From contig JAGZNZ010000002.1 in NCBI GenBank assembly GCA_018363345.1, forward strand, positions 13,529-77,528: DNA of 64,000 nt, written 5' to 3'. The notes beneath the pieces were generated by a model. The model saw only the letters and a list, made by a program, of their open reading frames with translations. It was not told where the DNA came from and did no database searches. Source of the stretch: Collinsella sp. (GTDB lineage Bacteria > Actinomycetota > Coriobacteriia > Coriobacteriales > Coriobacteriaceae). Numbering within the stretch: position 1 is the first letter of the stretch; every line of letters starts with the position of its first letter. Position numbers and translations under genes: made by a program. Below are positions 22,793 to 59,330 of the stretch, one piece after another.

Positions 22793-22889
22793 TGGCGGGA
22801 ACGTATGTGAATCGAACACATCCAAGACGTTTTGCACGCCTCGCAACGGTTTTGAGGACCGCGGAGCCCACCGGAGCCCATCCGTTCCC
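22793..22889 (-). tRNA. selC: Candidate tRNA-Sec (selC), 97 nt, anticodon UCA.
   Basis: Hand-folded from the minus strand: GGGAACGG acceptor (7 bp plus a G.A mismatch), 6-bp D-stem with a CGGT loop, 5-bp anticodon stem with loop CCUCAAA, a ~7-bp long variable arm, 5-bp T-stem with loop TTCGATT, discriminator G, CCA. Sits between selB and the mobA/mocA gene, the classic selAB-selC context. C33 in place of U33 is atypical. Confidence 0.65.
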
Positions 22890-22925
22890 AAGTGCGCCGG
22901 TATTTTACCAAACCGAGCAGCCAAC

Positions 22926-24893
22926 CTAGCGCAGGGAGCGCAGGCCGCCGGCTTCCTTGTCGAGCACCGTAAAGCGCACGGCATCCAGGTGCTCCAAGAT
23001 GCTGATGGCACGCTTGCGCGACACACCCAGGGCTTCGCGCAACACACTCGTGGTGGCAGCGCCACCGGCTGCCTCAATGGCGGCGGCAACGAGCTCGCGC
23101 GCATGGGCCTCGGCGGCAGCGGACAGGGCAACGTCGCGCTCGACCTTCACGATGGAACGGTTGAGCGAAAGCTCGCGCAGGGCACGCGTCATGGTGTCGC
23201 GATCGAGCTGCAACTGCTCGCCCACCTCGGGCAACGTCGGCGCATCGAGGCCAGCTTCGTCCAGCAAGGAAACGATGCGCTCGCAAGCCTCTCGCACCAC
23301 GCGTGCCGCCGCGGTGGCCGAATGCGGATCGAATACCTCGGCGCCCTCGGCGGCGCACACGCCGCGCGAGCAGCCCTCGTAAATCAGGGCCGCGGCAACG
23401 CCTTCATCAGCGGCAGGCCACGCAGCATGGGCAACGGCGCCGGGCGTAAAGCCTGTCTCCTTGGGAGCCGCCGCGTGCATGGCTGACAGGGTCGCCGCCA
23501 GTGCATCCATCGCAGCGTCGAGCACCACGGCGTCCGCCAAGAGGTCCGCATCACCCACGGCAAGCTTGCGAACGGAGCCCTGCGCCACCAACCCGCGCAG
23601 TGCGGCATCGACCTCGCCGACACCAAGATCCAAAGCCTCGGCAACATCAACCGGCGTAACCGGCAGCGTCTGCAGCGCCAGCCAAGCGCCCACACCGCCC
23701 GCGATATCGCCGGACTCGAGTGCCGCAAACAGCGCGCGCTCGCCGGCCGAAAGCTCGCGCGAGCGACGGCAGCGCGATAGCAGCACGCGCCCGCCGCCGA
23801 TGAGCATCACGGGCGAATAGGACAGCACCACGGCATGGTCGCCGGCGCGCAGCGGCAGCGAGTTTTCCAAGCGCACCTGAACAATACGGGTCTCGCCCAC
23901 CGCCATGGGGGCCTCGCCCTCCATGAACATGATGCGACCGACAACCTCGGCCGTACCCGCCATCACATGCACGCGCGCGCCCGACTCGAGCACGCGCGGC
24001 TTGGCACCCTCGCGGCCCAGGTAAGTGAACACCATCATAAAGCGCATCGTCTGGCCAAAGCGACCCTGCACGCCGAGCATCTCTCCGCGATCGAGCGCGG
24101 CGACGGCATCGCCCACCAAGTTGAGCGCCACACGCTGACCGGGCAATGCCCGCGGCGTATCGCCATGCACCTGAATCCCGCGCACGCGACAGACCGTACG
24201 CGACGGCAGCGCGACGAGCTCATCGCCCACCGCAACCGGCGCATCGTGCAGCGTTCCCGTCACCACGGTACCGGCGCCCTTGATCGTAAAGCAGCGGTCG
24301 ATGGGCAGCCGCGGCGCGGCATCGGTGGTCTCGGCACGGGCACGGCAGGCATCCCAGCAAGCGGCAACCTGCTCGTCGAGTGCAGCAAGCAGGTCATCGA
24401 TCCCCGCGCCGGTCTTGGACGACACGGGCACGATCGACGCGTCGGCAAACACGGTATCCGAAAGAAAATCGTCCACGTCGAGCTCGGCCAGCTCAATCAT
24501 TTCGTTATCGGCCAGGTCGCACATCGTCAGCGCGACCACCATATGCGTAACGCCCAGCAGCTCCAGCACACGCACGTGCTCGCGGGTCTGCGGCATCACG
24601 CCCTCGACGGCCGAAACCACCAGCACGGCCACGTCGATACCCGTGGCGCCCTGCACCATGGCACGCAAGTAATGCGCATGGCCCGGCACGTCGACCAGGC
24701 CAACGATCTTGCCACTCGGCAGCGCCAGCTCACCAAAGCCAAGCTCAACGGTCATGCCGCGACGACGTTCAACTTCCAGGCGGTCGGGGTTTTTACCCGT
24801 CAGCGCCTCGATGAGCGCCGACTTACCGTGGTCAACGTGGCCCGCCGTGCCAACGATAACGGGACACTCCACCAGCGCCTGAACCTCACTCAT
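22926..24893 (-). CDS. selB: Selenocysteine-specific elongation factor SelB.
   Basis: N-terminal GTPase motifs (GHVDHGKS, DVPGH, the NKxD-equivalent LTMCDL), followed by about 400 aa of winged-helix domains; 655 aa. Its start overlaps the selA stop (ATGA). Confidence 0.9.
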   Translation of the reverse strand: MSEVQALVECPVIVGTAGHVDHGKSALIEALTGKNPDRLEVERRRGMTVELGFGELALPSGKIVGLVDVPGHAHYLRAMVQGATGIDVAVLVVSAVEGVMPQTREHVRVLELLGVTHMVVALTMCDLADNEMIELAELDVDDFLSDTVFADASIVPVSSKTGAGIDDLLAALDEQVAACWDACRARAETTDAAPRLPIDRCFTIKGAGTVVTGTLHDAPVAVGDELVALPSRTVCRVRGIQVHGDTPRALPGQRVALNLVGDAVAALDRGEMLGVQGRFGQTMRFMMVFTYLGREGAKPRVLESGARVHVMAGTAEVVGRIMFMEGEAPMAVGETRIVQVRLENSLPLRAGDHAVVLSYSPVMLIGGGRVLLSRCRRSRELSAGERALFAALESGDIAGGVGAWLALQTLPVTPVDVAEALDLGVGEVDAALRGLVAQGSVRKLAVGDADLLADAVVLDAAMDALAATLSAMHAAAPKETGFTPGAVAHAAWPAADEGVAAALIYEGCSRGVCAAEGAEVFDPHSATAAARVVREACERIVSLLDEAGLDAPTLPEVGEQLQLDRDTMTRALRELSLNRSIVKVERDVALSAAAEAHARELVAAAIEAAGGAATTSVLREALGVSRKRAISILEHLDAVRFTVLDKEAGGLRSLR

Positions 24894-26347
24894 CGAACAA
24901 TCGCCTTCTCAACGCACGCGACGAGCGTCGATGCCGCCGTCTCGATATCGCGGTCGCCCACGAGCGTGCGCACATCAAACAGAATGCGGTCGTGCGAGGC
25001 GCGCGTGACGACCGGCGTATCGGAGTCTTGAACGAGCGAGCGTTTGAGCGCGTCGACCGTCAGGCGCTCGTCAACAAGACACACGGCAACGCACATCGTG
25101 GGCAGCTCCACGGTAGGCAGCGAGCCGCCACCGGGGGTCGACGATTCCTCGACAATCTCCAACTCAACGGCACAAGGGCAACCGGCCTTATCGAGCCCGG
25201 CGACCATACGATCGCGAAGCTTGCGGGCACGTCGCTCCAAATGGGCCTGCGGCAGCGTAAGCATGCTGAGTACCGGAATATCGCGATGGGCAACATCGGC
25301 GCCGTCCATGTAGATACGCAGCGTGGCCTCGAGCGCCGACAGAGCCAGCTTGCCAGGACGCAGGGCACGCATAAGCGGATGCGACCCGCAGGCCTGGACC
25401 AGCTCGCGGCGGCCCATGATAATGCCCGCCTGTGCGGCACCGAGCAGCTTATCGCCCGAGCATGATACGATATCGAGCCCCGCCGCGACCGAAGCCGGCG
25501 TGGGCTCCTCACCGCCGCGCACCAGGATGTCGTCGGGCAACAGCGCGCCCGAGCCCTGGTCCTCGTAGAACAGCAGACCATGCTTGTGGGCCAGGGCGGC
25601 AAGCTCCCGAGAGCCCACCTCCTCGTGAAAGCCCTCGATGCGATAGTTGGAAGGATGGACCTTGAGGATCATGGCCGTATCGGGCGTGATGGCGCGCTCG
25701 TAGTCCGACAGGTGCGTGCGGTTGGTGGCCCCGACCTCGACGAGTTTGGCGCCCGAAGCCGCCATGACATCGGGGATGCGGAAGCTGCCGCCGATCTCGA
25801 CAAGCTCGCCGCGACTGACGATGACCTCCCTGCCTGCGGCATGGGTCGCCAGCACCAGCAGCACAGCGGCGGCGTTGTTATTAACGACCAGCGCGTCCTC
25901 GGCACCGGTAAGCGAGCGGATCAGCTGCGCGGCATGTTCCTTGCGCGACCCACGCGAGCAGGTGTCCACACTGTACTCGAGCGTGCTGTACCCACGCGCG
26001 ACCTCGGCCACGGCCTTTGCCGCCGACTCCGCGAGCGGGGCGCGACCCAAGTTGGTATGGATGACCACACCCGTGGCGTTGACGGCAGGACGCAGGCTCG
26101 GCAGTGCGGATCGATGCGCACGCCACTCGATGGCCGAGGCCATGTCGCGCTTAGAGCGCGGGGCGGCACCGGCGCGAATGGCGGCGCGCTCCTCGTCGAG
26201 CTCGGCCGTCACGGCAACATGCACCACCGCGTCGCAGGTCTCCCCCGCCGCCTTCACAACCGGCCACTCTGCGAGCATCTCGTTGACGGAAGGAATAGCG
26301 CGAAGGCGGGCGCGTACCTCATCGGACATGTTCTGGCTATCGCTCAT
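24890..26347 (-). CDS. selA: L-seryl-tRNA(Sec) selenium transferase SelA.
   Basis: PLP-fold enzyme with the characteristic SelA N-terminal segment. 485 aa, coupled to selB. Confidence 0.9.
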   Translation of the reverse strand: MSDSQNMSDEVRARLRAIPSVNEMLAEWPVVKAAGETCDAVVHVAVTAELDEERAAIRAGAAPRSKRDMASAIEWRAHRSALPSLRPAVNATGVVIHTNLGRAPLAESAAKAVAEVARGYSTLEYSVDTCSRGSRKEHAAQLIRSLTGAEDALVVNNNAAAVLLVLATHAAGREVIVSRGELVEIGGSFRIPDVMAASGAKLVEVGATNRTHLSDYERAITPDTAMILKVHPSNYRIEGFHEEVGSRELAALAHKHGLLFYEDQGSGALLPDDILVRGGEEPTPASVAAGLDIVSCSGDKLLGAAQAGIIMGRRELVQACGSHPLMRALRPGKLALSALEATLRIYMDGADVAHRDIPVLSMLTLPQAHLERRARKLRDRMVAGLDKAGCPCAVELEIVEESSTPGGGSLPTVELPTMCVAVCLVDERLTVDALKRSLVQDSDTPVVTRASHDRILFDVRTLVGDRDIETAASTLVACVEKAIVR

Positions 26348-33903: not shown

Positions 33904-33906
33904 TCG

Positions 33907-35466: not shown

Positions 35467-35469
35467 GGA

Positions 35470-36123: not shown

Positions 36124-36136
36124 GTCGTTCTACCTC

Positions 36137-37594: not shown

Positions 37595-37609
37595 TGTTTC
37601 TCCCTTCTC

Positions 37610-38536: not shown

Positions 38537-38548
38537 GCTCTCCCCTCC

Positions 38549-41177: not shown

Positions 41178-41189
41178 CCCCACTTCCTT

Positions 41190-44277: not shown

Positions 44278-44500
44278 TTTGGGCTGGTTAGGATTATTCT
44301 TGGGTAGCTATAAAGATAAGTGTATTACACGCGTACGCCAAGAAAGATTTCGCGCTCGTTTATGCAGGATGTAGTACGTTTGTAATGTTGATCGCGCTCA
44401 ATTACTCTAGTGCAATAAAGTAGTAGTTATAAGATTGGCTATTACTAGCCGAAACTGTATGTGACTATTCATACTGCACGCTCATTAAGGGAGGCCAGTG

Positions 44501-44824
44501 ATGTCATCGACTCAAAAACGAGCCATCCTGCAGGTGCGCATTCGCGAGGAAGACAAGCAGCATGCCGAGCGTCTCTACGACGCCATGGGCACATCGCTCG
44601 CCGAGGCTGTCCGTCTATTTGTCGCGCAGAGCATTTTGATGCGCAAGCTCCCCTTTCAGCCGGTCGCCGTGCGCTCAAAGGACGGCACCGCCGCCTATGG
44701 AACGCTCAAAGCATATGGGGACCCCAATCGCCGCTCCAAGGAGCGCAATGCCTGGATTGAATACCTTGCTACAGAAAGCGACGATTCGATTTTGGGTCCC
44801 GAGGAAGTAGATATCCATGAGTAG
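44501..44824 (+). CDS. RelB/DinJ-family type II antitoxin.
   Basis: N-terminal ribbon-helix-helix-like QVRIREEDKQHAERLYDAMGTSLAEAVRLFVAQSI. GGGAGG RBS; 8-nt overlap (ATGAGTAG) with the downstream toxin gene. Confidence 0.65.
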   Translation: MSSTQKRAILQVRIREEDKQHAERLYDAMGTSLAEAVRLFVAQSILMRKLPFQPVAVRSKDGTAAYGTLKAYGDPNRRSKERNAWIEYLATESDDSILGPEEVDIHE

Positions 44825-45272
44825 CACCATCATCGACGAGACCGTCATCCTGCGCTATCTGCTCGACGACGACGAGGTCCTGTCGCCGCGCGCCGCCAAG
44901 GTCATCGCCACGCGCACCGCTCGTGTCTACCCCGAGATCATCACGCGCGTCGTGGTCACGCTGCGCGACGTCTATAAGGTTCCACGCGTTGAGATTGCTG
45001 CGGCCATGAAAAGGCTGATCGATGACGTCATGGTCGACGAGCCCACCGTTGTCGCCCTTGCCGTCAAACTCTTTGGCAAGACCCATATGGACTTTACCGA
45101 CTGCCTCCTCGCAGCCCGAACAGCCATCTACAACGATGATGTCGTGAGCTTTGGCAAGCCCATCATCCAAGGCATGATCGATTACCGCCGCAAGCGCCAA
45201 ACCGCAGCCGAAGCCCGCAGCCGCAGCATCGACTCCACCATCGACAAGCTCCGCCACCGCCCCCGCAGCTAA
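44817..45272 (+). CDS. PIN-domain (VapC-like) toxin candidate.
   Basis: N-terminal IIDETVIL...DDD and later DFTDCLLAARTA resemble the PIN acidic motifs. Translationally coupled to the antitoxin. Confidence 0.5.
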   Translation: MSSTIIDETVILRYLLDDDEVLSPRAAKVIATRTARVYPEIITRVVVTLRDVYKVPRVEIAAAMKRLIDDVMVDEPTVVALAVKLFGKTHMDFTDCLLAARTAIYNDDVVSFGKPIIQGMIDYRRKRQTAAEARSRSIDSTIDKLRHRPRS

Positions 45273-47423: not shown

Positions 47424-47499
47424 AGGCACACCTTTCGGGTCGAAACAAAAACGGGACGGGCAAAATACCCGTCCCGCAAGTATAAACGGTCCAGCAGCT

Positions 47500-48639
47500 T
47501 TAGCAGACTAAATTGCGCAGAGCATCGATAGCCGTATCGACTTCTTCGGTCGTGTTGAAATACCCAAACGAGAAGCGGACGACACCCTGGCGCTCGGTAT
47601 CTAACGCACGGTGCATGAGCGGAGCGCAATGGGCACCGGGGCGCGTCGCAATCCCCCACCCTTGCATGAGCGCGTCCGAGATCTCGGCCGAGTCGATATC
47701 ACCCACGTTGAGTGAGACGATCGCCGAGCGCACGGGCTGGTCAAACGCACCGTAGAGCGCAATGCCGGGGATTTCGCGAGCACCGGCGAGGAAGCGCTCT
47801 GCAAGCGAGCGCTCATGCGCCGCAATCGCCTCGACCCCACCTTGCGCCTCGATAAAGTCGAGACCGGCAGAAAGTCCCGCGATGCCGTGGCCGTTGAGCG
47901 TGCCCGCCTCAAGACGCGTGGGCCACTCAAGTGGCTGCAGCGGGTCAAAGCTGTGCACGCCCGTGCCGCCCATGGCCCACGGAGACACGTCAATGCCCTC
48001 CGCCACGGCCAGGCCGCCGGTGCCTTGGGGTCCCATGAGCCCCTTGTGGCCGGTAAAGCACACAATGTCGAGCCCCATGGCATGCATATCGATACGCGCC
48101 GTGCCGGCAGACTGAGAGGCATCGACGATCACCAGCGCACCTGCCGCATGGGCCATGGCCGCCACGCGCGCAATGTCGACCGCGTTGCCGGTCACATTAG
48201 AGGCATGCGTCACCACCACGGCACGCGTACCGGGCGTGACTAGCCGCTCGAGCTCGTCGTAGTCGAGCGCGCCGTTCGCGTCGCAACCCGCATGCTCAAC
48301 CGTCACACCCTGCTCTGCCGCCAAGCGATTGAGCGGACGTAGCACGGAGTTGTGCTCGAGCACCGTCGTGACCACGCGGTCGCCGGGGCGCACCACGCCA
48401 CAGATGGCGGTGTTGAGCGCCGCCGTAGAGTTGGGCGTAAAGCACACATGGTCCGCCCTCGGGCAACCTAAAAGGCGCGCGAGCTTGGCACGGCAACCGT
48501 GAATCGTACGAGCGGCATCGAGGGCACCCGACGTGGCGCCGCGCCCGGCATTGCCGAGCGAGCACATCGCCTGCGTCACGGCATCGATGACCGTCTGCGG
48601 CTTGTGCATGGTCGTCGCCGCGTTATCCAGGTAGATCAT
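47500..48639 (-). CDS. Class-V aminotransferase-fold cysteine desulfurase / selenocysteine-lyase-like enzyme.
   Basis: PLP-lysine motif FTGHKGLMGP and C-terminal active-site Cys in RPGAHCAP. ATGA overlap with the upstream DUF3343 gene. Confidence 0.8.
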   Translation of the reverse strand: MIYLDNAATTMHKPQTVIDAVTQAMCSLGNAGRGATSGALDAARTIHGCRAKLARLLGCPRADHVCFTPNSTAALNTAICGVVRPGDRVVTTVLEHNSVLRPLNRLAAEQGVTVEHAGCDANGALDYDELERLVTPGTRAVVVTHASNVTGNAVDIARVAAMAHAAGALVIVDASQSAGTARIDMHAMGLDIVCFTGHKGLMGPQGTGGLAVAEGIDVSPWAMGGTGVHSFDPLQPLEWPTRLEAGTLNGHGIAGLSAGLDFIEAQGGVEAIAAHERSLAERFLAGAREIPGIALYGAFDQPVRSAIVSLNVGDIDSAEISDALMQGWGIATRPGAHCAPLMHRALDTERQGVVRFSFGYFNTTEEVDTAIDALRNLVC

Positions 48640-48887
48640 CGCACGACCTCCCACATATCAATCACGGTATAGCCCTCGGTGGGAACGCCCGCCGCGGCGA
48701 GTTCACCGCGCAGCAGCTCCTCATCGGCAGGCAACGCTTTCCACGCCAGACCACAGCCGGCAGCGACCTCCCCGGGCACGGGAATCGTTCGCCCGGGAAG
48801 GCCACGCTCAACGCACAGGGACTCGCAGCCCATGGCGGCCGCCGTGGTGGGAAACGTGATGACAAGCGCCGGGCGCTTTTCCCTCAT
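48636..48887 (-). CDS. DUF3343 (putative Se/S-carrier-like) small protein, second paralogue.
   Basis: ALVITFPTTAAAMGCESLCVERGLPGRTIPVPGEVAAGCGLAWKA parallels the C-terminal domain of the protein at 21595..21990. Confidence 0.65.
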   Translation of the reverse strand: MREKRPALVITFPTTAAAMGCESLCVERGLPGRTIPVPGEVAAGCGLAWKALPADEELLRGELAAAGVPTEGYTVIDMWEVVR

Positions 48888-48906
48888 GGCAACTCCAACC
48901 AATACG

Positions 48907-49533
48907 CTACGGGCGCACGACGCGCACGGCCTGCTCCATCTTCTCCACGATCACGTACATGTTGGTGACCTCGCCCACCGCAAGCTGGTCTTTAATGCCA
49001 TAGTGGTCGAGGCAGGTACCACAGGTGAGAATCTCGACACCCTGCTCGGCCAGGCCCTTCAGGTCGTCGAGCACCGGCGAGCCCTCAACGGTGAGCTTGG
49101 CGCCGCCGTTGTAGAACAGCATGGTCGCGGGCAGCTCCTCCTGCTGCGTCACGGCAAAGATAAACGCCTTCATGAGCTTGTGGCCCAGCTCGTCGTCGCC
49201 GCGGCCCATGCAGTCGGTGTAGACGGAAATGACGAGCCTGCCCTTGCCGGCGCTGGCATCACAGAAGGCAGCGCCATCCTGCTCGGGATCGGCCATGGCA
49301 ACGGCGCCAGAGGTCGCCACGGTCACGTGCCACTCGGCGTCAGAAACCTTCTCGACCGAGGCCGTGCAGCCCTTCTCCTGCGCCATCTTGGAGATGTTCT
49401 TGACGGCGGTCTCGTTGTCGACCGAGGTCACGACGGCGCCCTCGCCATCGAGCTGCTTCAGAGCTTTGAGCGTCTTGACGACGGGCAGCGGGCAGGCATC
49501 GCCCATGGCATTGACTTCAATCTTGGTAGACAT
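48907..49533 (-). CDS. yedF: YedF-like selenium-metabolism protein (TusA/SirA-like N-terminal domain with CPxP, fused to a DsrE-like C-terminal domain).
   Basis: N-terminal AMGDACPLPVVKT (TusA CPxP motif) and C-terminal LTCGTCLDHYG (DsrE-like). About 208 aa. Confidence 0.75.
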   Translation of the reverse strand: MSTKIEVNAMGDACPLPVVKTLKALKQLDGEGAVVTSVDNETAVKNISKMAQEKGCTASVEKVSDAEWHVTVATSGAVAMADPEQDGAAFCDASAGKGRLVISVYTDCMGRGDDELGHKLMKAFIFAVTQQEELPATMLFYNGGAKLTVEGSPVLDDLKGLAEQGVEILTCGTCLDHYGIKDQLAVGEVTNMYVIVEKMEQAVRVVRP

Positions 49534-49594
49534 AGCAAATTCCTTTCGAAAGAGCCGTTCTAGAGAACGGCAAACAGTTACATAAACGTGCGGG

Positions 49595-50644
49595 CTAGCG
49601 AACAACGCGGACGGCAGGACCGCCCGGCTCCGCCTCGCACACGCGCCCGACAACGGCCGCGATGCGCCCCTCGGCATGCAGGCGACGCGCAAGCTCATCC
49701 ACATCGGCAGCAGGCGCCGCGATGAGCAAACCGCCCGAGGTCTGCGGATCGTACAGCGCATCCAACATGCCCGGCCCCAGGTCATCGTCGGCCGCCACGC
49801 GCGGGCCAAAGAAGTCCTGGTTGCGGTAGGCACCGGCAGGAATAATGCCCAGACGCGCCATGTCGAGCACCTGATCAAAGAGCGGCACCGCCCCCGACAC
49901 AAGCTCAATCTGCACGCCCGAGCCCTCGGCCATCTCGCACGCGTGCCCGATCAGGCCAAAGCCCGTGACATCGGTGCAGCCGTGAAGCTCAAGTCCCTCG
50001 GCCAGACGAATCGGGGCCTCGTTGAGGGCGCGCATCGAGTCGAACATCGGGCTGGCGTCATCCTGTTCGATAAGCTCGCCCTTAATGGCCGTGGTGATGA
50101 CGCCCGAGCCGATTGCCTTGGTCAGCAACAGGACATCGCCAACGCGCGCGCCGCTGTTGGCGAGCATGCGGTCGAGCGAGACAAAGCCGCTCACGGACAG
50201 GCCGTACTTGGGCTCGTCGTCGTTGATGGTGTGGCCGCCTGCGATGGAGCAACCCGCCTCGACGCACTTATCGGCGCCGCCCGCCAGAATCTGACCGGCA
50301 ACCTCAACGCCCAGGCAACTGGGTATGCAAAGCAGGTTCATGGCATGGCTCGGCCGCCCGCCCATGGCGTAGATGTCCGACAGCGAGTTGGCCGCAGCGA
50401 TCTGGCCAAACAGGAACGGGTCATCGACCATCGGTGGGAAGAAGTCGATGGACTGCACGAGCCCCAGGTTCTCCCCTACGCGGAAGACGCTCGCATCGTC
50501 GGAGGTATCGAACCCCACGAGCAAGTTGTCGTTATGCACATTGGGTAAGTCGCCCAGGACCTGGGCGAGGGCTCCGGGAGCCAACTTAGCGGCTCAACCG
50601 CTCGCGGCTGTCATGGACGTGAGCCTCATGGTGTCCTTAGCCAT
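49595..50644 (-). CDS. selD: Selenide, water dikinase SelD encoded as a selenoprotein (in-frame UGA at 50594-50596, equivalent to Cys17 of E. coli SelD).
   Basis: Reading upstream of the track ORF (which starts at a TTG) in the same frame gives MAKDTMRLTSMTAASG-U-AAKLAPGALAQVLGD...NLLVGFDTSDDA. This aligns with E. coli SelD [23 protein letters not shown]...NLLVGNETRDDA. ATG at 50642-50644 with a GGAAGGGGG RBS. Confidence 0.85.
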
Positions 50645-51854
50645 ACGAACCCCCTTCCAACAAATCAACGACTTTAAGTATACGCGCCAGGCACGCTTCC
50701 CAAGAGACCGCCGACGGCTCGAACGTCGAAAGCGGCGCCGCAAGCGCCTGCGCGATAGCATCTGCCAGTGCGCGCTCAAACAACGGAAGGTCGGCCGCCA
50801 CGGGCGTGTCGACATCCGTCACACGCGGCGACGCCGCCCACGTCACGGGAGCACCGGGAAGCATCGCCTCCATCCAGGGACGAACGCCGGGCAAATCGGT
50901 CGCCACAACTTTGCAGCCGCACGCGAGGGCCTCGATCGTCACGAGCGGCAGACCCTCGTAAAACGAAGGCAGCACAAAGACGTCGGAACTGCGGTAGGCA
51001 CGCACGAGCCCATCGCTATCCAGGCGCCCCGCCAGCGTCACCGGCACATCCGAGGCCGCGGTCAAGCGCTCGATACGCGCGTACTCGGCATCGTCCCCGC
51101 GGCCGCCCACAAGTACCAAGCCAGATGGGCGGACGCCATCGTCAATCGGCAATGACACAGCTCGAACCAGCGACTCGACGCCCTTTTTAAAGCAAATCTT
51201 GCCCACGTACACAAGCGATCCCGGCTGCCTCGCCACGCTTGCATCGCGGCAGAAGACGCGATGGTCGTAGCCCGTCCCAATCACGTGGATACGATCGGCA
51301 TCGACGCCGCACACCAGGCCAATCTGCTCAGCCTGCTCAGCATGGAGCGCAAAGACGGCATCGAGCCGACGAACCGCACTTACAATGCGATCGCGTTCGA
51401 GCGTATGCGAACGCAGCTGGCGCAGGTCGGTCGAATGACACACGGCAACAACCGGCACGCCTCGGACGCACTCGCGCGCCAATGCGGTCACCAGATACAG
51501 GTGATGGCAGAGCACCAGATCGGGCCGAAACTCAGCCACCGCTCGATCGATTGCAGCAGCAAATGCCCGCTCAAATGCCTTGAGCATCGAAGGCGTCAGA
51601 TCACGATAGCGTGTGGAGGGATAGGGCATGACATCGGACATGCCACAGATGGGAAACGGCAGCTCGGGCGACTCGAACGGTACGGCAAACACGGCAGCAC
51701 GCCGGTCCAGCTCGCCTTGGGTATCACCCGGTGCCGCGCCGCAAAGCACGGCGGCGCGATGCCCCGTCTCGATCTGCTCGCGTACGAGCGCGGCAAGGTA
51801 GGTGCCGCTGCCAGTGCTATCTGGTTTTTGTGCCGAGATATTGAGGATGCGCAT
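50637..51854 (-). CDS. GT4-family (GT-B, retaining) glycosyltransferase whose stop overlaps the selD start by 8 nt.
   Basis: EX7E motif FYEGLPLVTIEALACGCKVVATD and overall RfaG-like organisation; about 405 aa. Stop TAA at 50637-50639, inside the selD start ATGGCTAA. Confidence 0.75.
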   Translation of the reverse strand: MRILNISAQKPDSTGSGTYLAALVREQIETGHRAAVLCGAAPGDTQGELDRRAAVFAVPFESPELPFPICGMSDVMPYPSTRYRDLTPSMLKAFERAFAAAIDRAVAEFRPDLVLCHHLYLVTALARECVRGVPVVAVCHSTDLRQLRSHTLERDRIVSAVRRLDAVFALHAEQAEQIGLVCGVDADRIHVIGTGYDHRVFCRDASVARQPGSLVYVGKICFKKGVESLVRAVSLPIDDGVRPSGLVLVGGRGDDAEYARIERLTAASDVPVTLAGRLDSDGLVRAYRSSDVFVLPSFYEGLPLVTIEALACGCKVVATDLPGVRPWMEAMLPGAPVTWAASPRVTDVDTPVAADLPLFERALADAIAQALAAPLSTFEPSAVSWEACLARILKVVDLLEGGSYG

Positions 51855-51868
51855 GTCGCGGTACACCC

Positions 51869-52633
51869 CTAGGCCAAGGCGGCGGCGCGGACAGCCGCGC
51901 CGATCGCTCCGGCAAAGCGAGCCTGGGGCGAGGTGGTCACCGGCGACCCCAGTAGCTCGCCCAACCGCTCCACCACGAAGGCGTTCTCGCACAGGCCACC
52001 GGTCAGGTAGTACGGGGCGCCCGCGGCCTGCCCGGCCATGGTCGCCACGCGCGAGACCACACTGTCGATCACGCCACGCGCAATGTTCTCGCGCGGCTCA
52101 CCGCGACCGATCAGGCTGATGACCTCGCTTTCGGCAAACACCGTGCACATGCTGCTGATCTTGGTGGGCTCGCCGGAACGCGCCAGGTCGGCCATCTGCT
52201 GCTGGGAAATGCCCAGGCGGTCGGCCATGATCTCCAGAAAGCGCCCCGTGCCTGCGGCGCACTTGTCGTTCATGGCGAACTTTGCCACGCGGCCGCCCTT
52301 GAGTTGGATGACCTTGGTATCCTGGCCGCCCACGTCGATCACCGTGCCCTGCTCGCCAAACAGGCGGACCGCACCGGCACCATGGCAGGTGATCTCGGTC
52401 ACTACCTTGTTGGCATAGGGCACCGCGACACGGCCGTAGCCAGTCGCGACCACGCGAACATCGTCGCCCGTCACGTCATAGCCGGCTGCGGCGAGTTCAC
52501 CGCGTAGGCGCTCGGCCGCATCGACCGACGAATACCCCGTCGGCATGACGCAGGTCCACGCAATGGCGTTGTCCGTCTCCACCACCGCAGCCTTCGCGGC
52601 CGTCGAGCCTATGTCGATACCAATGCCAACCAC
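51869..52633 (-). CDS. BadF/BadG/BcrA/BcrD-type ATPase; HgdC-like activase of 2-hydroxyacyl-CoA-dehydratase-family enzymes.
   Basis: N-terminal GIDIGSTAAKAAV, the VIDVGGQDTK acetate/sugar-kinase-fold motif, and Cys residues for a bridging [4Fe-4S]. About 254 aa. Confidence 0.8.
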   Translation of the reverse strand: MVGIGIDIGSTAAKAAVVETDNAIAWTCVMPTGYSSVDAAERLRGELAAAGYDVTGDDVRVVATGYGRVAVPYANKVVTEITCHGAGAVRLFGEQGTVIDVGGQDTKVIQLKGGRVAKFAMNDKCAAGTGRFLEIMADRLGISQQQMADLARSGEPTKISSMCTVFAESEVISLIGRGEPRENIARGVIDSVVSRVATMAGQAAGAPYYLTGGLCENAFVVERLGELLGSPVTTSPQARFAGAIGAAVRAAALA

Positions 52634-52683
52634 GGCATCCTCCTTCTATGCGGCAAAGCAGCTATCCCTTTGCCGCATTTGTC

Positions 52684-53847
52684 CTACAGGGTCTCGATAA
52701 AGGCAGCGATGCGCGTCTCGATCTGGCCCATGTCACCGTTGCTGTAGTCGGTCTCGATCTTCATATACGGAATACCCGCACCCTCGACAACCTCCTGCAT
52801 GCGCGCACTCTCCACGTTAAAGGTGTGGCAGGCCTGCAGCACGCTCTCCACCACGCCATCGACGTGGTACTTCTCGCACATGGCCAGCGTGTTTTCCATA
52901 CGACCGTCGTTGGGCGTCATGACCGAGCAGTTGATGACCAGGTAGCGGTCGGCGATGGCACGCAGGATGTCGGGAGCCTCCGGATCGATCATCATGGCCG
53001 CCGTGCGCTCGCCCGAGCAATCGTCCATGCACACGACCACGCCGCCATTGGACTCGATGGTGCGACCGATCTTGTTGATCACGCCGCCCACCGGGCAACC
53101 AGTGATCAGAATGCGCTTGGCATCCGCCGCAACCGGGCGCTCGCCTGCGTCGTAGGCCTCGCGCAGCTTGGCAACCTTTTGCTCCAGTTGCTGCGTATAG
53201 GCCTCGATATCAAAGCTGAACGTAACGGCAAACATGGTGCTCATCAGGTCGACGCCGCTCATGGCCGCCGGCTGGTTAGCCTGCAGCGCAAACATCTCGA
53301 GCTGGGCCGCACGCAAGCGGTTGCGACGACGGACGGCAGCGCGCAGGTCATCGTCGGTAATCGTGATGCCGTAGAAGCCCTCGAGCTCCTCCTTGAGCAG
53401 GCGGCACTCCTCGTACCAGCCTTCACGCTCGTAGGCACGATCGCGACCCTGCGGAAGATGCAGAATGTGCGTGCGCTTGAGCTCGTTGAGTAGCTCGTAC
53501 ATCTTCTTCTTGCCGTCGCAGGTGGTCTCACCGATGATCATGTCGCTAAAGTACGTAAACGGACACTTTTGCGAATAGGCAAAACCATACGTAGACTTGA
53601 TGAGCGGGCACAGGTTTGCCGGCAGCACCTTCTCGGCCTCGGGAATCACCTCGTCGGACGTACCACACAGAGCCACGCTCGAGGCGCCCGCGGCATCGAT
53701 AATCTCGAGCGGCGTATAGCTGCACAGATAACCGACAAGACGATTGCCCGCCTGCTTGTAATCCTTAACGCGAATAAACGCGGCCTTGCGCTGCTCGTTG
53801 AACTCCTCAAACGTGGACGGCAACGACTGCTCAATATTTTCCGACAT
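52684..53847 (-). CDS. 2-hydroxyacyl-CoA dehydratase family subunit (HgdA/HgdB-like, D-component family).
   Basis: Conserved Cys ligands (CSYTP..., [16 protein letters not shown]); about 388 aa. Confidence 0.7.
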
Positions 53848-54001
53848 ATAACTCCTTAACAAACCTTTTAACCAACCAAGGAAACGGCTTTCCCAGGTGC
53901 CCGAGGTTGCCGTGAAAGAGGAGCGTCGCGTACTTTGGTACGCAAGCGACGGTTTGAACAGCAAGATCGGGTGCCTGGGGAAGCCGCCGGGACGAATAGT
54001 C

Positions 54002-55285
54002 CTAAATGGTTTCCAAGAAAGCCTCAATCCTGGTTTGCAGTTGGCCTGCATCCTCGCCGGCGTAGTCGGTCGTGATGTGCATAAACGGAATGCCGGCCTC
54101 CTCGGCAGCCTTCTCCACGGCAAACGACTCCATCTCGTAGAGCGTGCAGAACTGCAGGGCCACGTCGACAATGCCGTCGGCATGCAGGTCCTTGGCCATC
54201 TGGACAATGTCCTTCATACGCTGGTCGTTGGGCGTAAAGACGGCACAGTTGATCTTAAAGTAGCGCTCGGCGATAGCATCGAGCATCTCGTCAACCGTCT
54301 CACCGGACTCATCGACCAAGTCCTTGTAATAGCGCGAACCCGTGCAGGACTCCTCGCCCACCACAACGCCGCCGGCCTTCTCGATGAGGTTGAACAGCTT
54401 CCAGTTGGGCACGGCCATGGGCGTGCCGGTGTACAGAATGCGCTTGGTCCCCTTGGGCGCCACGCCCTCTCCGGCCTCGACACGCTGCTCACACTCGGCC
54501 GCCATATCGTTGATGGCTCCGGTCAGACGCGGCGTGTCGTCCATAAAGGCGGCCTGAACGGTCAGCAGGCTGTCGAGACCGCTAATGGGCGCTGGGTCGG
54601 CAGCGCGCGTGGCAGCGAGGCGCTGCAGGGCACGGCGCTTCTCATTGACGGCGTGGATGGCGGCTTTCAGACGCTCAGGCGTAATCGTGACGCCGCACTC
54701 TTCCTCGATCTTGGCGGCGAGCTTCTTGACCTCGGCCTTCCAGGTCACAAGCGTCGACTCGTCGTGTACGTTGGGAATATCCATGACGTACATGTTCTTT
54801 TGCGTGGCAAAGAACTCGTAGGCTTTCTTCTTGCCGTCGCAGGTGTTCTCGCCTACCACCAAGTCACTCGACTCAATGTAGGGGCAGACCTCGCCCAGCT
54901 TAAAGCCGGCAAAGCTCTTGATGAGCGGACAAGTGTTGCGCGGCAAGTGCTCCTCGACCTTGTCGGTCGCCCAATCGGCACCCGAGCACAGACCCACGGG
55001 GATACCGTCGCAGGCGAGCACAATCTCCTCGGGCACGTAGACGCAGAAGCTGCCCACGATCTTGGTGGCCTCGCCGGCCTCCTTCTTGTCGAGCATCTCC
55101 TTAATACGGCCGCTGTGGATGTTGGTGGCGACAAAATCCAGGTAGGACGTGGACTTGGGGCGATTATTCTGCGACAGGAACATGTCCCCGTACATCTGGC
55201 CCACGGCGCCCAGCAGCATATCGTGGTCGGCAAGATTCATGCCGAGGCTCTCCCACATCGGATGGAAATCGAATTCTTCAGCCAT
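54002..55285 (-). CDS. 2-hydroxyacyl-CoA dehydratase family subunit (second HgdA/HgdB-like paralogue).
   Basis: Paralogous to 52684..53847 ([23 protein letters not shown]). GAGAGGGGAA RBS. Confidence 0.7.
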
Positions 55286-55716: not shown

Positions 55717-56787
55717 CTATCGACAAACCAAATGGATCCTGCTGGCATCAAAATGCATGCGCAGCGTCTCGCCTGCTTGCGGCAGCTCGTCGACAGGCAT
55801 GCGCACTTTGTTGACCTTCCACTGCAGGCGCGTCGGCGCGTCGGCGCGCGGCACGTCCAGCAGCACCAGGCGCTCAAAACGTGAATCGCTCACGCGGGCC
55901 ACATGCAGGTCGTAGCTGTTGCGACCCCGCTCAGCACGGTTGTCCACATGGAAGTAGCTCGCACGAATACCCAGGTACGCCACGTTATCGGGAACCTCAC
56001 GGCCCACGTTGAAGGTCATGCCCCAGTCGAGGGCCTCAACTTCTTCGTCGCCGATCTTGCGCGCGCGGCTCGTATTCTTGCAGCCCGTCAAGCGCAGCGC
56101 GGCCAACGTCTGCGGATGACGGACCACGTCCTCGACGGAGCCGATCTCCTCAACATGCCCGTTGTGCATCACGCAGATGCGCTCGCACAGACGGCACGCT
56201 TCGTCGATGTCGTGGCTCACGTAGAGCACGGTTCGGTTGCATACATCGAACAGATCGAGCATGTTTTGCTCAAGCGCGCTCTTGAGATACGCGTCGAGCG
56301 CGCTCATGGGCTCATCGAACATAAAGATGCCCGGATGCGCCGCCACCATGCGCGCAAGCGCCACGCGTTGCTGCTGACCGCCCGAGAGGCGCACGGGGTA
56401 GCGGTCGACAAAATCGGCCAGACCGAAAATGCCCAGATAACGCTCGGCGAGCTTTTTGCGCGCGGCGGCGTCGCCCGCATCCTTTACGCCGGCGCACACG
56501 TTATCGGCCACCGTCATGTTGGGAAACAACTGATAGTTTTGGAACAGTAGGGCGCATTTTCGCTCCTGGGGCGACAGGTCGATGCCCGCGGCCGAGTCAA
56601 AAAAGGTCACGCCGTTGACGACGATCTTGCCCTCGTCGGGCGTCTCCACACCGGCAATGCAGCGCAGCGTGCAGCTCTTGCCGCAACCCGAGGCGCCCAG
56701 CAGTGCCACGCGCTCCTCGCCGGCCTCAAGCTGCATGTCGAGCACAAACCCGGGATAACGTTTCTTAATATCCAAAACGAGCGACAT
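55717..56787 (-). CDS. modC: Molybdate ABC transporter ATP-binding protein with C-terminal TOBE domains.
   Basis: Walker A GASGCGKS, signature LSGGQQQRV, Walker B IFMFDEP. The C-terminal about 120 aa is TOBE-like. Confidence 0.85.
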   Translation of the reverse strand: MSLVLDIKKRYPGFVLDMQLEAGEERVALLGASGCGKSCTLRCIAGVETPDEGKIVVNGVTFFDSAAGIDLSPQERKCALLFQNYQLFPNMTVADNVCAGVKDAGDAAARKKLAERYLGIFGLADFVDRYPVRLSGGQQQRVALARMVAAHPGIFMFDEPMSALDAYLKSALEQNMLDLFDVCNRTVLYVSHDIDEACRLCERICVMHNGHVEEIGSVEDVVRHPQTLAALRLTGCKNTSRARKIGDEEVEALDWGMTFNVGREVPDNVAYLGIRASYFHVDNRAERGRNSYDLHVARVSDSRFERLVLLDVPRADAPTRLQWKVNKVRMPVDELPQAGETLRMHFDASRIHLVCR

Positions 56788-56790
56788 GGC

Positions 56791-58215
56791 CTATCGACCT
56801 CCCGTCGAGACGGCGTCATCGCGCATGAGCTCGGCCAGCGCCTCGCGATCGATACGCAGCGCATCGCCGCCGACCGGGTCGAGCGAATCGCCCTGTCCGG
56901 CGAATTCTTTGGCCTGCCTGCGCTCCGCACGGGAAAGGCCCCGTTCGCGATACTTTTGCGAATGCGCCGTGTACATGTTGATGAACAGGATGACCAGGAA
57001 ACTGAACACGATTACGACAATGACCCAAAAGAGAGCTACCGACGTGTTGCCGCCCATCCACTCAAAGTAGATGGCGATGGGAATGGTCTGCGTAATGCCG
57101 GCATAGTTGCCCGCAAAGAACAGCGTGCAGCCAAACTCTCCCATGGCGCGGGCAAAGGCGAGCACCGTACCGGCGGCAATCGAGGGCCAGCCGAGCGGCA
57201 TCATAAGCTTGGTAAAGATGCGACGTTCGGACCACCCCAAGGTTCGCGCGGCGTCGAGCATCTGCGTGTCGAGGCTCTCGAAGGCTCCGAGCGCCGTGCG
57301 GTAGACCAGCGGAAACGACACAACGACGGCCGAAATGACCGCCGCGGGCCAGGTAAAGACGATCGAGATACCGTGCGCGATGAGCCACTGGCCCACCCCG
57401 GTCGAGCGGCCAAACAGCATGAGGAGCAGAAAGCCGCAGACCGTGGGCGGCAGCACCATAGGAATCGTAAAGACCGAATCGAGCAGGCCCTTGATGCGAC
57501 TCGAGGTACCCATAGTCTTCCACGCGGCAAACAGGCCCAGTGCAAAGGCAATCAGCAGGGCAAGGCCGCTCGTTTTGATAGACACCCAAAACGGGCGGTA
57601 GTCGATGCCGCCTAAAAAGGAGGCCAAAGAGGTCAAGGGCCCCTGCTCATTCCGCAACACGACTGACGATGCTTCTACCATTTGAGCGCTATCAAGCCAA
57701 CGCGCGCCGCCCTTGGCATCACCCGAGGCCGATGCAATCACCACATAGCGGTCCCCATCCGCACCGCGTTCGTCAAAGCCATAGGTATACCCGCCGGCAT
57801 CAAACGTTGTTTCCGCCGTGACATACCAAGGAAGATCCACGTCCCCCAGCTGCGCACCTCCCATGCAGTTTGCGCTGTCGAGCTCACAGACGAGGGTCTT
57901 GAGGCCCGATACGCACTCGTTGTCCTGCGGATCCAATCCATACTTCTCGACCGCCTTGGGCGATATCCACACCACAACGCGATCGGCAGCAGGCGCCACT
58001 ACAAGGTCCACGTCCTCGTCAACGGGAAACCGGTAGCCCTCAGGCTGGCCCTCCATGGCACGAGCGGTCCCCTTGGCCAACCGCTCAAAACCCTCGATCC
58101 CATAGGAAAGCCCATGAGCGGTCGCAGCAACCTGGGCCCCGTCCTCGGCGTCCCCAGCAAACGCAAATCCCGGCACCCAGCAAAGCGCGAAGGTCAAAGC
58201 ACAGGCGACAAGCAT
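56791..58215 (-). CDS. modB: Molybdate ABC permease ModB fused to a ~220-aa N-terminal signal-peptide-bearing extracytoplasmic domain of unknown function.
   Basis: The C-terminal half has the ABC permease EAA-loop region (ARTLGWSERRIFTKLMMPL). The N-terminal MLVACALTFALCWVPGFAFA looks like a signal or anchor peptide, followed by a novel domain. One continuous ORF. Confidence 0.7.
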   Translation of the reverse strand: MLVACALTFALCWVPGFAFAGDAEDGAQVAATAHGLSYGIEGFERLAKGTARAMEGQPEGYRFPVDEDVDLVVAPAADRVVVWISPKAVEKYGLDPQDNECVSGLKTLVCELDSANCMGGAQLGDVDLPWYVTAETTFDAGGYTYGFDERGADGDRYVVIASASGDAKGGARWLDSAQMVEASSVVLRNEQGPLTSLASFLGGIDYRPFWVSIKTSGLALLIAFALGLFAAWKTMGTSSRIKGLLDSVFTIPMVLPPTVCGFLLLMLFGRSTGVGQWLIAHGISIVFTWPAAVISAVVVSFPLVYRTALGAFESLDTQMLDAARTLGWSERRIFTKLMMPLGWPSIAAGTVLAFARAMGEFGCTLFFAGNYAGITQTIPIAIYFEWMGGNTSVALFWVIVVIVFSFLVILFINMYTAHSQKYRERGLSRAERRQAKEFAGQGDSLDPVGGDALRIDREALAELMRDDAVSTGGR

Positions 58216-58301
58216 GCGGAATCTATTAAGCACAAAAAGCTCCAAGAGAATACAAGGACGGAGTTAAACACAAAACGATGGAATTATCGCGCCAAGCCGC
58301 A

Positions 58302-59174
58302 CTACGCGGAAAGCTCAAAGCCGTATTTGGCCCAAATCTTCTGGGCCTTCTTGTTGGACAGGCAAAAGTCGATAAACGCCTTGGCCTCGTCGGCATGTTC
58401 GGAGCCATCGGCGACAGCGCCCGGATACACGATGGGCTTATGCGAGTCCTCGGGACACACAAAGGCCTCCTCGATGCCGTCGTAGCGGTAGATGTCGGAG
58501 CTGTAGACAAAGCCAGCCACGCAGTCGCCCGTAGAGACGTAAGACGCAGCCGTGCCGACCTTGTCGGCCAGGGCCACCTTGTTGGCGATCTCGGGGGCGT
58601 ACTCGCCGTCGTCGCCCTCGGTGCCGGTGTAGAGGCCCACGGAGGCCAGGGCCTGGTTGGCGTACTTGCCGGCGGGAACGGTCTTGGCGTCGCCAATGGC
58701 GATCTTGCCGTCCAGATTCGCGACGTCGGCGATGGCCTCGACCTTGGTGTCGGAGCCCTCAGCGCGAATGATCACGAGGTCGTTGACGAACATATCCTCA
58801 CGGGTGTCGGCGTCGACGAGCTCGGCGGCCTCGGCGTCATCCATGGTGCCCTTGGAGGCTGTGATGAGCACGTCGACGGCGGCACCGGCGCGCATCTGCT
58901 CGACAAGGTCGCCGGACGCTTTGAACTGCGTGTCGGCAAACGTGGTGCCGGTCTGCTCGGTGTAGAGCTCCTGGACCTCGGGCAGAGCCTTCTCGAGAGA
59001 GTTAGCAGCGAAGACCTGAAGCTCGACAGCCTTCTTGGACGAAGTCTTGGCGGAACCGGCATCGGAGCCAGTCGACTCAGGTGCCTTATTGTCGGAGCAG
59101 CCGGCAAGGCCAAGGCCAGCAGCGGCGACAGCAGAAAGCGAGACGAATCCGCGGCGAGAAACCATATCGAACAT
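58302..59174 (-). CDS. modA: Molybdate ABC transporter substrate-binding lipoprotein.
   Basis: N-terminal SRRGFVSLSAVAAAGLGLAGC (RR motif plus lipobox) and a ModA-type periplasmic binding fold. ATG at 59174 has a GAAAGGG RBS. Confidence 0.8.
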   Translation of the reverse strand: MFDMVSRRGFVSLSAVAAAGLGLAGCSDNKAPESTGSDAGSAKTSSKKAVELQVFAANSLEKALPEVQELYTEQTGTTFADTQFKASGDLVEQMRAGAAVDVLITASKGTMDDAEAAELVDADTREDMFVNDLVIIRAEGSDTKVEAIADVANLDGKIAIGDAKTVPAGKYANQALASVGLYTGTEGDDGEYAPEIANKVALADKVGTAASYVSTGDCVAGFVYSSDIYRYDGIEEAFVCPEDSHKPIVYPGAVADGSEHADEAKAFIDFCLSNKKAQKIWAKYGFELSA

Positions 59175-59330
59175 GTTCAACCCTTTCGAAGACTACACCC
59201 GGGCGCCCCGCCGCGAGCTTTGTTCTGTTACTAGATTATACTTTCACGCGAATAATGTTTCTGATGAATAGCTCTCGCCCGATAATTTTCTTTTACCAAT
59301 AACCGCGAGACGGCCCGCACCGTCACTGCA

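Follow-up and report, generated by a model that had tools for sequence, protein, structure and literature searches.

Why does a glycosyltransferase gene share its last nucleotides with the start of selD, the gene of selenophosphate synthetase? The question is raised by 64,000 nucleotides of Collinsella sp. DNA (GenBank assembly GCA_018363345.1, contig JAGZNZ010000002.1, positions 13,529 to 77,528 of the forward strand), here referred to as the window, in which a glycosyltransferase gene of the GT4 type (here referred to as GT) overlaps a selD that carries an in-frame TGA. The original prediction took the two genes for a possible module of the SenB/SenC kind. We found that the GT-selD arrangement is clearly conserved and not a matter of chance. 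Moreover, the recurrent, rearranged co-localisation of this GT with selenium genes in two phyla strongly suggests that the GT family and those genes are functionally linked. That the GT has a selenium-linked function of some kind is the side to which we lean slightly, and the reading as a whole, of a selenium-linked accessory GT in a selenium-handling operon of anaerobes, is evenly poised in our judgement.

The junction of the GT gene and selD

The features of the junction are given below, with coordinates in the window.

50637..51854, minus strand: GT4 glycosyltransferase gene of an unnamed subfamily, 405 aa; ATG at 51854, TAA at 50639-50637
49595..50644, minus strand: selD, selenide water dikinase; ATG at 50644-50642, TAG at 49597-49595; selenocysteine (Sec) at codon 17
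50637..50644, minus strand: 8-nt overlap ATGGCTAA, in which selD starts and the GT gene stops; sequence read directly
50594..50596, minus strand: in-frame TGA of selD (Sec17), in the loop ...AASG-U-AAKLAPG
50575..50600, minus strand: candidate Sec insertion sequence (SECIS) hairpin over and after the TGA, from a minimum-free-energy fold

The TAA of the GT gene lies inside the selD start, as had been claimed, and a Shine-Dalgarno-like GGAAGGGGG stands 5 nt upstream of the overlapping ATG. We regard this ATG as the real start of selD, because the Collinsella species whose GTs are 66-70% identical lack the window's second in-frame ATG; this start is further supported by the protein itself, since residue 2 aligns to position 2 of the model PRK00943. 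The TGA at codon 17 occupies the position of the catalytic Cys/Sec. The hairpin is a plausible SECIS candidate, though not significant alone against shuffled sequences (z = -1.2). It is possible that gene callers truncate a Sec-containing selD of this kind at the UGA.

A contig search with a Collinsella-led alignment returned only Collinsella loci of at least 95% identity. Of 80 such loci (GT 95-100% identical), 76 have the 8-nt overlap together with the TGA. The TGA at codon 17 is present in all 80 and also in the selD of Oribacterium. Two further Collinsella species (L171 and L172; labels of this form are ours for individual loci), with GTs 66% and 70% identical, have the junctions ATGGCTAA and ATGGCTGA. 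The overlap and the TGA are kept across Collinsella species down to 66% GT identity, and the earlier statement that this selD decodes UGA as Sec also holds.

Selenium gene clusters around the GT

In the window the pair belongs to a predicted operon of eight genes (47500-55285, minus strand), encoding two double-cubane reductases, an activase, the GT4, SelD(Sec), YedF, a DUF3343 protein and an SclA-like desulfurase. We then collected more divergent members of the family. From 11 individually retrieved loci, together with a metagenome search for which a divergent member served as lead, we obtained 41 GT clusters (at about 85% identity). In Coriobacteriia, at least 11 different gene orders place GT orthologues of 48-70% identity within a group of selenium genes or next to one, and the selenium genes concerned encode SelD, YedF, DUF3343, the SclA-like desulfurase, SelA/B, YedE and the double-cubane reductase. 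In many of these loci the GT has a selenium gene as neighbour on either side, and the gaps are frequently -1 to 30 nt. The gene orders are as follows, where Csd stands for the desulfurase and DCCP for the double-cubane reductase.

Collinsella: DCCP-DCCP-activase-GT-SelD-YedF-DUF3343-Csd
Thermophilibacter immobilis: SelD-SelA-SelB-YedF-DUF3343-GT-Csd-ABC
Arabiibacter: selB-selA, divergent from GT-Csd-YedF-DUF3343, then SelD on the other strand
Slackia faecicanis: selB-selA, divergent from GT
L102: GT-Csd-YedF-DUF3343
L105: GT, then selB-selA on the other strand, then YedF-DUF3343-SelD
L106: selA, divergent from GT-YedF, then SelD on the other strand
L108: selA, divergent from GT-DCCP-Csd-activase-DUF3343
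L111 and L118: ...SelD, (activase), Csd-GT
L113 and L121: YedE-TusA-(DCCP-activase)-DUF3343-GT-Csd-YedF-DUF3343
L123: SelA-SelB-GT, then SelD on the other strand (convergent)

The Coriobacteriia-type GTs form one group in a neighbour-joining tree without bootstrap. By our own tally, which includes L171 and L172, selenium genes adjoin the GT in 13 of the 17 Coriobacteriia-type clusters with usable flanks.

Moreover, the association is found independently in Oribacterium sinus and its relatives (Lachnospiraceae, GC 42%; assigned by means of EF-Ts), where the order is ABC-Csd-YedF-DUF3343-GT-SelD(Sec)-LysR_Sec_metab and holds over GT identities of 63-100%. The LysR protein matches NF040786 with 339 bits against a cut-off of 250. 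In the same kind of tree (neighbour-joining, no bootstrap) the Oribacterium GT branches with other Firmicutes GTs, and the SelD, YedF and Csd of this genus are only 38-48% identical to the closest proteins of the query panel (SelD 48%); for these two reasons a recent transfer of the whole cluster to Oribacterium is unlikely. An inverted repeat is conserved in the spacer between GT and selD in Oribacterium (L169 11267-11385; L170 9064-9240). It reads GGGAAGGGGTTTTCTGTACCTTTCCC in L169 and GGGAGGGTATTTTCTATACCTTCCC in L170, and it might act in attenuation or termination or serve LysR_Se as its operator.

The published selenium status of GT-bearing species is in line with a link to selenium. Collinsella aerofaciens, O. 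profusa and Dorea formicigenerans carry SelD (PMC5029168, supplement file 2), and 7 selenoproteins are listed for Oribacterium sinus (PMC5029168, supplement file 3), whose selD we saw directly in the locus. In fact, all named GT-bearing species with a published status, few as they are, possess SelD or selenoproteins. Since members of the subfamily turn up again and again within the selenium-utilisation clusters of anaerobes, we infer that the GT serves selenium handling.

Could the GT instead be unrelated to selenium, making an ordinary phospho-glycoside, compatible solute, glycolipid or precursor of a low-molecular-weight thiol, and stand beside selD through synteny or operon hitch-hiking? 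We consider this unlikely, yet it is an alternative of real weight. It does not readily account for a GT that stands between selenium genes, within selenium operons, in two phyla and in a large variety of rearranged gene orders, nor for its coupling to selD in Collinsella species as distant as those above. As a rough estimate, which was not computed, adjacency by chance to a cluster of about 10-15 genes in a genome of about 2 Mb would be expected in about 1-2% per lineage.

Several observations, however, favour such a selenium-independent role and weigh against a selenium-linked one. About half of the contexts of the family are free of selenium genes: by our own tally, about 19 of the about 32 GT clusters with usable flanks have none within 10 kb, e.g. 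Dorea, L122, L154 and L135. Low-GC Firmicutes types make up most of them, and D. formicigenerans (L165) has no selenium genes within 10 kb of the GT though the species is SelD-positive. L087 possesses a full selenium cluster (YedE-TusA-DUF3343-DCCP-activase-SelD-YedF-DUF3343-Csd, with the activase directly before SelD) and no GT within 10 kb, from which it follows that the core pathway can do without the GT. The only neighbour of this kind that the GT has in Olsenella, L085 and L086 is an ABC importer, described below. The domains fused to some members of the subfamily (DUF6873, GFO/IDH/MocA and GGACT) do not indicate selenium. A PHP phosphoesterase is encoded directly downstream of the GT in 7 of the Firmicutes-type clusters without selenium genes (L135, L137, L141, L146, L148, L154 and L162), and a HAD hydrolase upstream of it in Olsenella, which is the classic synthase-phosphatase layout of solute pathways; the best structural matches of the GT, given in the next section, point the same way. 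Furthermore, GT4 enzymes are retaining and SenB is inverting, so the chemistry would differ from that of SenB.

The ABC importer just mentioned is PhnS2/PhnU2/PhnT2-like, with a fused permease of about 560 aa, and all of its components are below the NCBIfam cut-offs. It adjoins the GT or the selenium cluster in Atopobiaceae-type genomes and in Oribacterium, at the following positions of the loci.

L081: 10420-14111
L084: 11223-14998
L085: 9368-12909
L086: 1424-5240
L168 and L169: 3759-7636
L170: 1520-5369

The genes called for the GT and the permease share 11 nt in L086. We had also considered ModABC beside the GT as a general feature and rejected it: true ModABC is found in Collinsella only (55717-59180 in the window), and the other lineages have the PhnS2/U2/T2-like importer.

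This importer may bring in a selenium compound, and it favours an explanation by selenium salvage. Here the GT-B enzyme would run degradatively: a seleno-glycoside or another organoselenium compound that the cell has imported would be split, either by phosphorolysis or in an NDP-dependent manner, and the released selenol would be passed by the desulfurase, YedF, DUF3343 and the double-cubane proteins to SelD. Selenosugars circulate in gut habitats, the hosts are mostly known from human-gut metagenome and genome assemblies, and the importer adjoins the GT or the selenium cluster in Thermophilibacter, Olsenella, L085, L086 and Oribacterium. In Collinsella, however, the neighbouring transporter is the true ModABC, no conserved glycoside hydrolase or sugar-1-phosphate enzymes are encoded nearby, and the idea is purely inferential. 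We therefore hold salvage to be improbable.

The remaining members of the predicted operon of the window and its flanking signals are listed below.

54002..55285, minus strand: double-cubane-cluster reductase copy 2, first gene of the operon; NF040772 492 bits (cut-off 350)
52684..53874, minus strand: double-cubane-cluster reductase copy 1; NF040772 494.5 bits (cut-off 350)
51869..52633, minus strand: BcrAD/BadFG-type ATP-dependent activase, 14 nt upstream of the GT; TIGR00241 236 bits (cut-off 125)
48907..49533, minus strand: YedF, selenium metabolism protein of the TusA-DsrE type; TIGR03527 213 bits (cut-off 110)
48636..48902, minus strand: DUF3343 / Se_S_carrier small protein; PF11823 66 bits (cut-off 25)
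47500..48654, minus strand: class V aminotransferase of the SclA-like cysteine desulfurase family; TIGR01977 411 bits (cut-off 377)
47451..47477, minus strand: terminator-like hairpin at the operon end; 12-bp stem, 8 GC pairs, T tract
55705-55678, minus strand: terminator-like site upstream of the operon, after modC
55649-55622 and 55572-55544, minus strand: promoter-like sites before the operon

The original prediction had placed the pair among YedF, DUF3343, a cysteine-desulfurase-like gene and a trio resembling 2-hydroxyacyl-CoA dehydratase. The first three can be retained; the desulfurase scores 344 bits with the SclA model NF040779 and does not reach its cut-off of 525. The trio has to be renamed as an activase and two double-cubane reductases, and a 2-hydroxyacyl-CoA dehydratase identity of this HGD-D pair was rejected, both proteins being above the NF040772 cut-off. 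Reductases of this family, with an 8Fe-9S double-cubane cluster, are reported to co-occur almost exclusively with SelD (Haft 2022 preprint, bioRxiv 10.1101/2022.07.06.499078). The gene context suggests that they may reduce a selenium species. Double-cubane reductases or the activase recur beside SelD or the GT in L087, L108, L111, L113 and L139. The two DCCP genes of the Collinsella loci L089, L092, L094, L099 and L107 are separated by an insertion of about 5.5 kb with ABC-ATPase-like ORFs, which is absent from the window. An Rfam scan of the window gave tRNAs only, with no riboswitch near the operon.

Family, fold and candidate acceptor of the GT

Searches in Pfam gave only generic GT4 domains for the GT, namely PF13439 (66.6 bits), PF13692 (73.5 bits) and PF00534 (61.6 bits). 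Its AlphaFold2 (AF2) model has a pLDDT of 91 and consists of two Rossmann domains, i.e. the GT-B fold. The best NCBIfam match is glgA_Coryne (TIGR02149, GlgM) with 60 bits, far from the cut-off of 302.4, and the scores for MshA (TIGR03449) and BshA (TIGR03999) are 43.9 and 32.9 bits with cut-offs of 462.5 and 273.7, respectively. GlgM, BshA, sucrose-phosphate synthase (SPS) and MshA are the closest structures. The GT belongs to an unnamed subfamily of GT4 with the GT-B fold, which has 642 representatives (50% clustering, E <= 1e-30). Its N-domain contains the invariant motifs AQKPDSTGSG and GMSDxMPY, the residues H118, H140, R145 and Q146, and also HSTDLRQ. The whole signature (Q9, P11, T14-G17, G71-MSDxMPY-78, H118, H140, R145, Q146, K219, K224 and E308) is the same in members from selenium and non-selenium contexts, and one chemistry probably lies behind both.

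A few other assignments were tried and discarded. The GT4 of defence systems (PF20706) scores 39 bits (cut-off 26), well under the 55-74 bits of the other GT4 domain matches, and PADLOC gave no match. Six database proteins (P0001, P0002, P0004, P0009, P0010 and P0013) appear to be activase-GT fusions. The three that were inspected (P0001, P0004 and P0013; 602-669 aa) either read on into a 5' stretch before the GT ORF that is out of frame or lack an internal segment, and being singletons they were rejected as frameshift, deletion or assembly artefacts instead of Rosetta-stone fusions. The fusions found within the subfamily (P0312, P0326, P0380 and P0341) join the GT to DUF6873 (twice), a GFO/IDH/MocA oxidoreductase and a GGACT domain.

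What would such an enzyme do in a selenium operon? We propose that it would use an NDP-sugar as donor and glycosylate a small anionic acceptor made or carried by its neighbours. The leading candidate would be selenophosphate from the translationally coupled SelD, and the product would be a seleno-glycoside (phosphate) that might store, buffer or pass on reduced selenium. The GT and SelD would then be functionally analogous to SenB and SenC, though evolutionarily independent of them and probably different in stereochemistry. Selenophosphate is the most economical single hypothesis, since it covers the coupling to selD, the phospho-acceptor-type fold and the phosphoesterase partners; a phosphorylated product likewise fits, because PHP or HAD phosphoesterases adjoin the GT in other lineages. 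As the specific acceptor, however, selenophosphate is put forward by analogy and tentatively, and we would sooner expect it to be wrong than right. With similar reserve, the subfamily might constitute a second, independent family for selenium glycosides in strictly anaerobic gut and oral bacteria, either using selenophosphate or cleaving an imported selenosugar; this wider proposal, which again leans on analogy, appears rather doubtful.

The acceptor could also be a protein of the cluster, e.g. the conserved Cys of DUF3343 or YedF, or SelD, whose glycosylation would protect or regulate the selenium carrier. In Thermophilibacter and in L113/L121 the DUF3343 gene is immediately upstream of the GT, with a gap of 8 nt. 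This adjacency is not universal, the closest structures are glycosyltransferases of small molecules and not of proteins, and we know of no precedent in selenium metabolism. We thus regard protein glycosylation as very unlikely and keep a small anionic acceptor as the preferred reading.

The matter is of some general interest. It bears on how anaerobes store and buffer reduced selenium and hand it over to SelD, a task for which none of the candidates YedF, DUF3343, Sec-lyase-like enzyme and double-cubane reductase has yet been characterised. The GT is conserved in selenium operons of abundant human gut and oral bacteria, including Collinsella, Eggerthellaceae and Oribacterium. If the selenium-linked reading is true, it would open a new branch of selenium metabolism that could bear on the competition of microbiota and host for selenium. 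A second selenium-glycoside family, if real, would mean a selenosugar-based route of storage, trafficking or salvage without a partner of the SenA/OvsA type. If selenium chemistry is not involved, the locus is a warning that gene overlap with selD need not imply it.

SelD, SenB/SenC and other known systems

Is the SelD of this operon a dedicated copy like SenC? The relevant features elsewhere in the window are the following.

22793..26347, minus strand: tRNA-Sec (22793-22889), selB and selA; ARAGORN and Rfam RF01852 (64.6 bits), TIGR00475/TIGR00474
41256..43478, minus strand: fdhF, formate dehydrogenase H with Sec140; TGA at 43059-43061 in ...CART-U-HGP; TIGR01591 638 bits over the C-terminal 592 aa

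With U read as C, SelD matches TIGR00476 with 357 bits (cut-off 125) and, over its full length (residues 2-347), PRK00943 with 323.6 bits (cut-off 299); it is 40% identical to the SenC of V. paradoxus. The selB and selA products score 286 bits with TIGR00475 (cut-off 242) and 516 bits with TIGR00474 (cut-off 268), respectively. SelD lies within 25 kb of tRNA-Sec, selA and selB and adjoins YedF and DUF3343, which fits a housekeeping role. The window, which also contains modABC and moeA, forms an island for selenium, molybdenum and formate. Among the window ORFs scanned (the formate hydrogenlyase ORFs at 32131-41183 were left out) there is no match to the SenA/EgtB-type (NHISS/OvsA) family, in agreement with the earlier remark that the window has no EgtB/SenA-like gene. 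Because the Sec machinery is in the window and no EgtB/SenA-like match was obtained among the ORFs scanned, SelD is most probably a housekeeping enzyme, and the idea of a SenC-like dedicated copy is not supported. By its sequence it is an ordinary selenophosphate synthetase, which would supply Sec synthesis for FdhF and for SelD itself and probably serves the trait of selenium-dependent Mo-hydroxylases as well. The window belongs to the C. aerofaciens group, and C. aerofaciens is recorded as positive for SelD, SelA, SelB, YqeB and YqeC, with two selenoproteins (Peng et al., PMC5029168 supplement). SelD and FdhF would fit as these two.

Further genes of this island may be mentioned here. The mechanical ORF calling split fdhF at its in-frame TGA (codon 140), and subunits of formate hydrogenlyase (hydrogenase 4 subunit H-like and NuoB-like), hycI and focA are encoded near it. 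At 16087-19832 (minus strand) a fused Fe-S/Mo-binding XDH-like hydroxylase of 943 aa and an FAD subunit match the models of selenium-dependent Mo-hydroxylases below cut-off; they may be clients of the YqeB/YqeC selenium-cofactor trait of C. aerofaciens. Between hydN and a tRNA-Gly/Pro pair there are two small ORFs (44498-45272, plus strand; 108 and 151 aa) that overlap by 8 nt and look like a toxin-antitoxin-type pair.

We then compared the GT with the SenB of V. paradoxus, whose sequence was taken from the supplement of bioRxiv 10.1101/2022.04.13.486033. A genuine SenB/SenC-type module for a compound like selenoneine or ovoselenol, with the GT as an orthologue of SenB, would be in keeping with two observations: the GT gene overlaps that of a SelD homologue as in senB-senC (bioRxiv 10.1101/2022.04.13.486033), and this homologue is 40% identical to SenC. 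The family comparison nevertheless refutes it at the level of membership. The GT scores 20 bits with the SenB model TIGR04348 (cut-off 300; E = 2.8e-4), over residues 214-324 only, and hhalign aligned the GT family profile with SenB in the donor domain only (214-332 with 144-258, probability 84%). SenB is absent from the best 50 Foldseek matches and from the 60 PDB profile matches listed for the GT, and the two proteins differ in length (405 and about 326 aa). Orthology with SenB was rejected for these reasons, and with a SelD of probable housekeeping role and the scanned ORFs free of SenA, EgtB or OvsA matches, a genuine module of this type is exceedingly improbable. The part of the original prediction that stands is the conserved coupling of a GT with SenB's fold class to a Sec-containing SelD; membership of the SenB family is the part that does not.

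The alignment gave the following details. The selenophosphate pocket of SenB is formed by N20, H58, R61, T83 and T85 (PMC10891094, PMC10702425), and hhalign gave no alignment of the N-domain in which counterparts could be sought in the GT. In the donor domain K224 of the GT stands opposite K158 of SenB, and a Lys is present here throughout the surveyed GT family. A Lys matching K158 is generic to GT4 enzymes. E300-GLPLV stands opposite EGGAHV of SenB, so that the motif differs. The nearest structures of SenB are SPS, BshA and MshA, and its selenophosphate pocket corresponds to the phosphate-acceptor pocket of MshA (PMC10891094, PMC10702425). Since the nearest structures are shared and the N-domain cannot be aligned, SenB and the GT belong to one structural neighbourhood but not to one family.

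SenB is the only selenium-specific glycosyltransferase identified (PMC10891094), and the pathways of selenoneine and ovoselenol are the two known selenometabolite pathways that use it; SenA and OvsA, which are known to consume the selenosugar of senBC, belong to the sulfoxide/selenoxide synthases with non-haem iron (PMC11030361). As in SenB/SenC, the gene of a GT-B glycosyltransferase here overlaps that of a selenophosphate synthetase, and both enzymes lie near SPS, BshA and MshA in structure and have an EX7E-type donor motif and a conserved Lys. Unlike the sen clusters, the window has no SenA or OvsA partner among the ORFs scanned. SenA and OvsA need O2, and the hosts of the GT are what we take to be strict anaerobes. 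Moreover, the acceptor domains cannot be aligned, the closest structures of the GT are of the GT4 type (MshA is described as retaining) whereas SenB inverts, and SelD is here most probably the Sec-containing housekeeping enzyme of anaerobes whereas SenC is a dedicated second copy.

SelD, YedF, DUF3343, Sec-lyase-like proteins and YedE form a known neighbourhood of prokaryotic selenium utilisation (Lin et al. 2015, PMC5322559). All of them are found here too, with scores that reach curated cut-offs, and the order SelD-YedF-DUF3343-Csd is the typical one; a GT was never proposed as part of that neighbourhood, unlike here. In the searchable literature we found no description of a GT4 in selenium clusters, apart from an entry in STRING, undiscussed, of the GT as a partner of YedE in Slackia heliotrinireducens (Shel_25140). 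In the preprint on the double-cubane reductases (10.1101/2022.07.06.499078), too, no GT is mentioned; the window is similar to what it describes in having two NF040772 genes and the activase directly upstream in the predicted operon, and the trio stands beside SelD in L087, L108, L111 and L113. New in our data, as far as the literature could be searched, is the GT4 in selenium clusters; the SelD-YedF-DUF3343-Sec-lyase neighbourhood, the co-occurrence of double-cubane proteins with SelD and the senBC cassette were already known.

Finally, the GT shares with GlgM, MshA, BshA and SPS the GT-B fold of two Rossmann domains, K/R residues for binding the diphosphate and an EX7E-like motif, and in some GT lineages also a phosphoesterase partner, as in SPS/SPP and MshA/MshA2. 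GlgM, SPS and MshA act on small phosphorylated acceptors, BshA being the exception with L-malate. The GT differs from these four enzymes in having its own N-domain signature and no NCBIfam model near the cut-off, and its genomic context is one of selenium genes, unlike the glycogen and thiol pathways in which GlgM, MshA and BshA take part.

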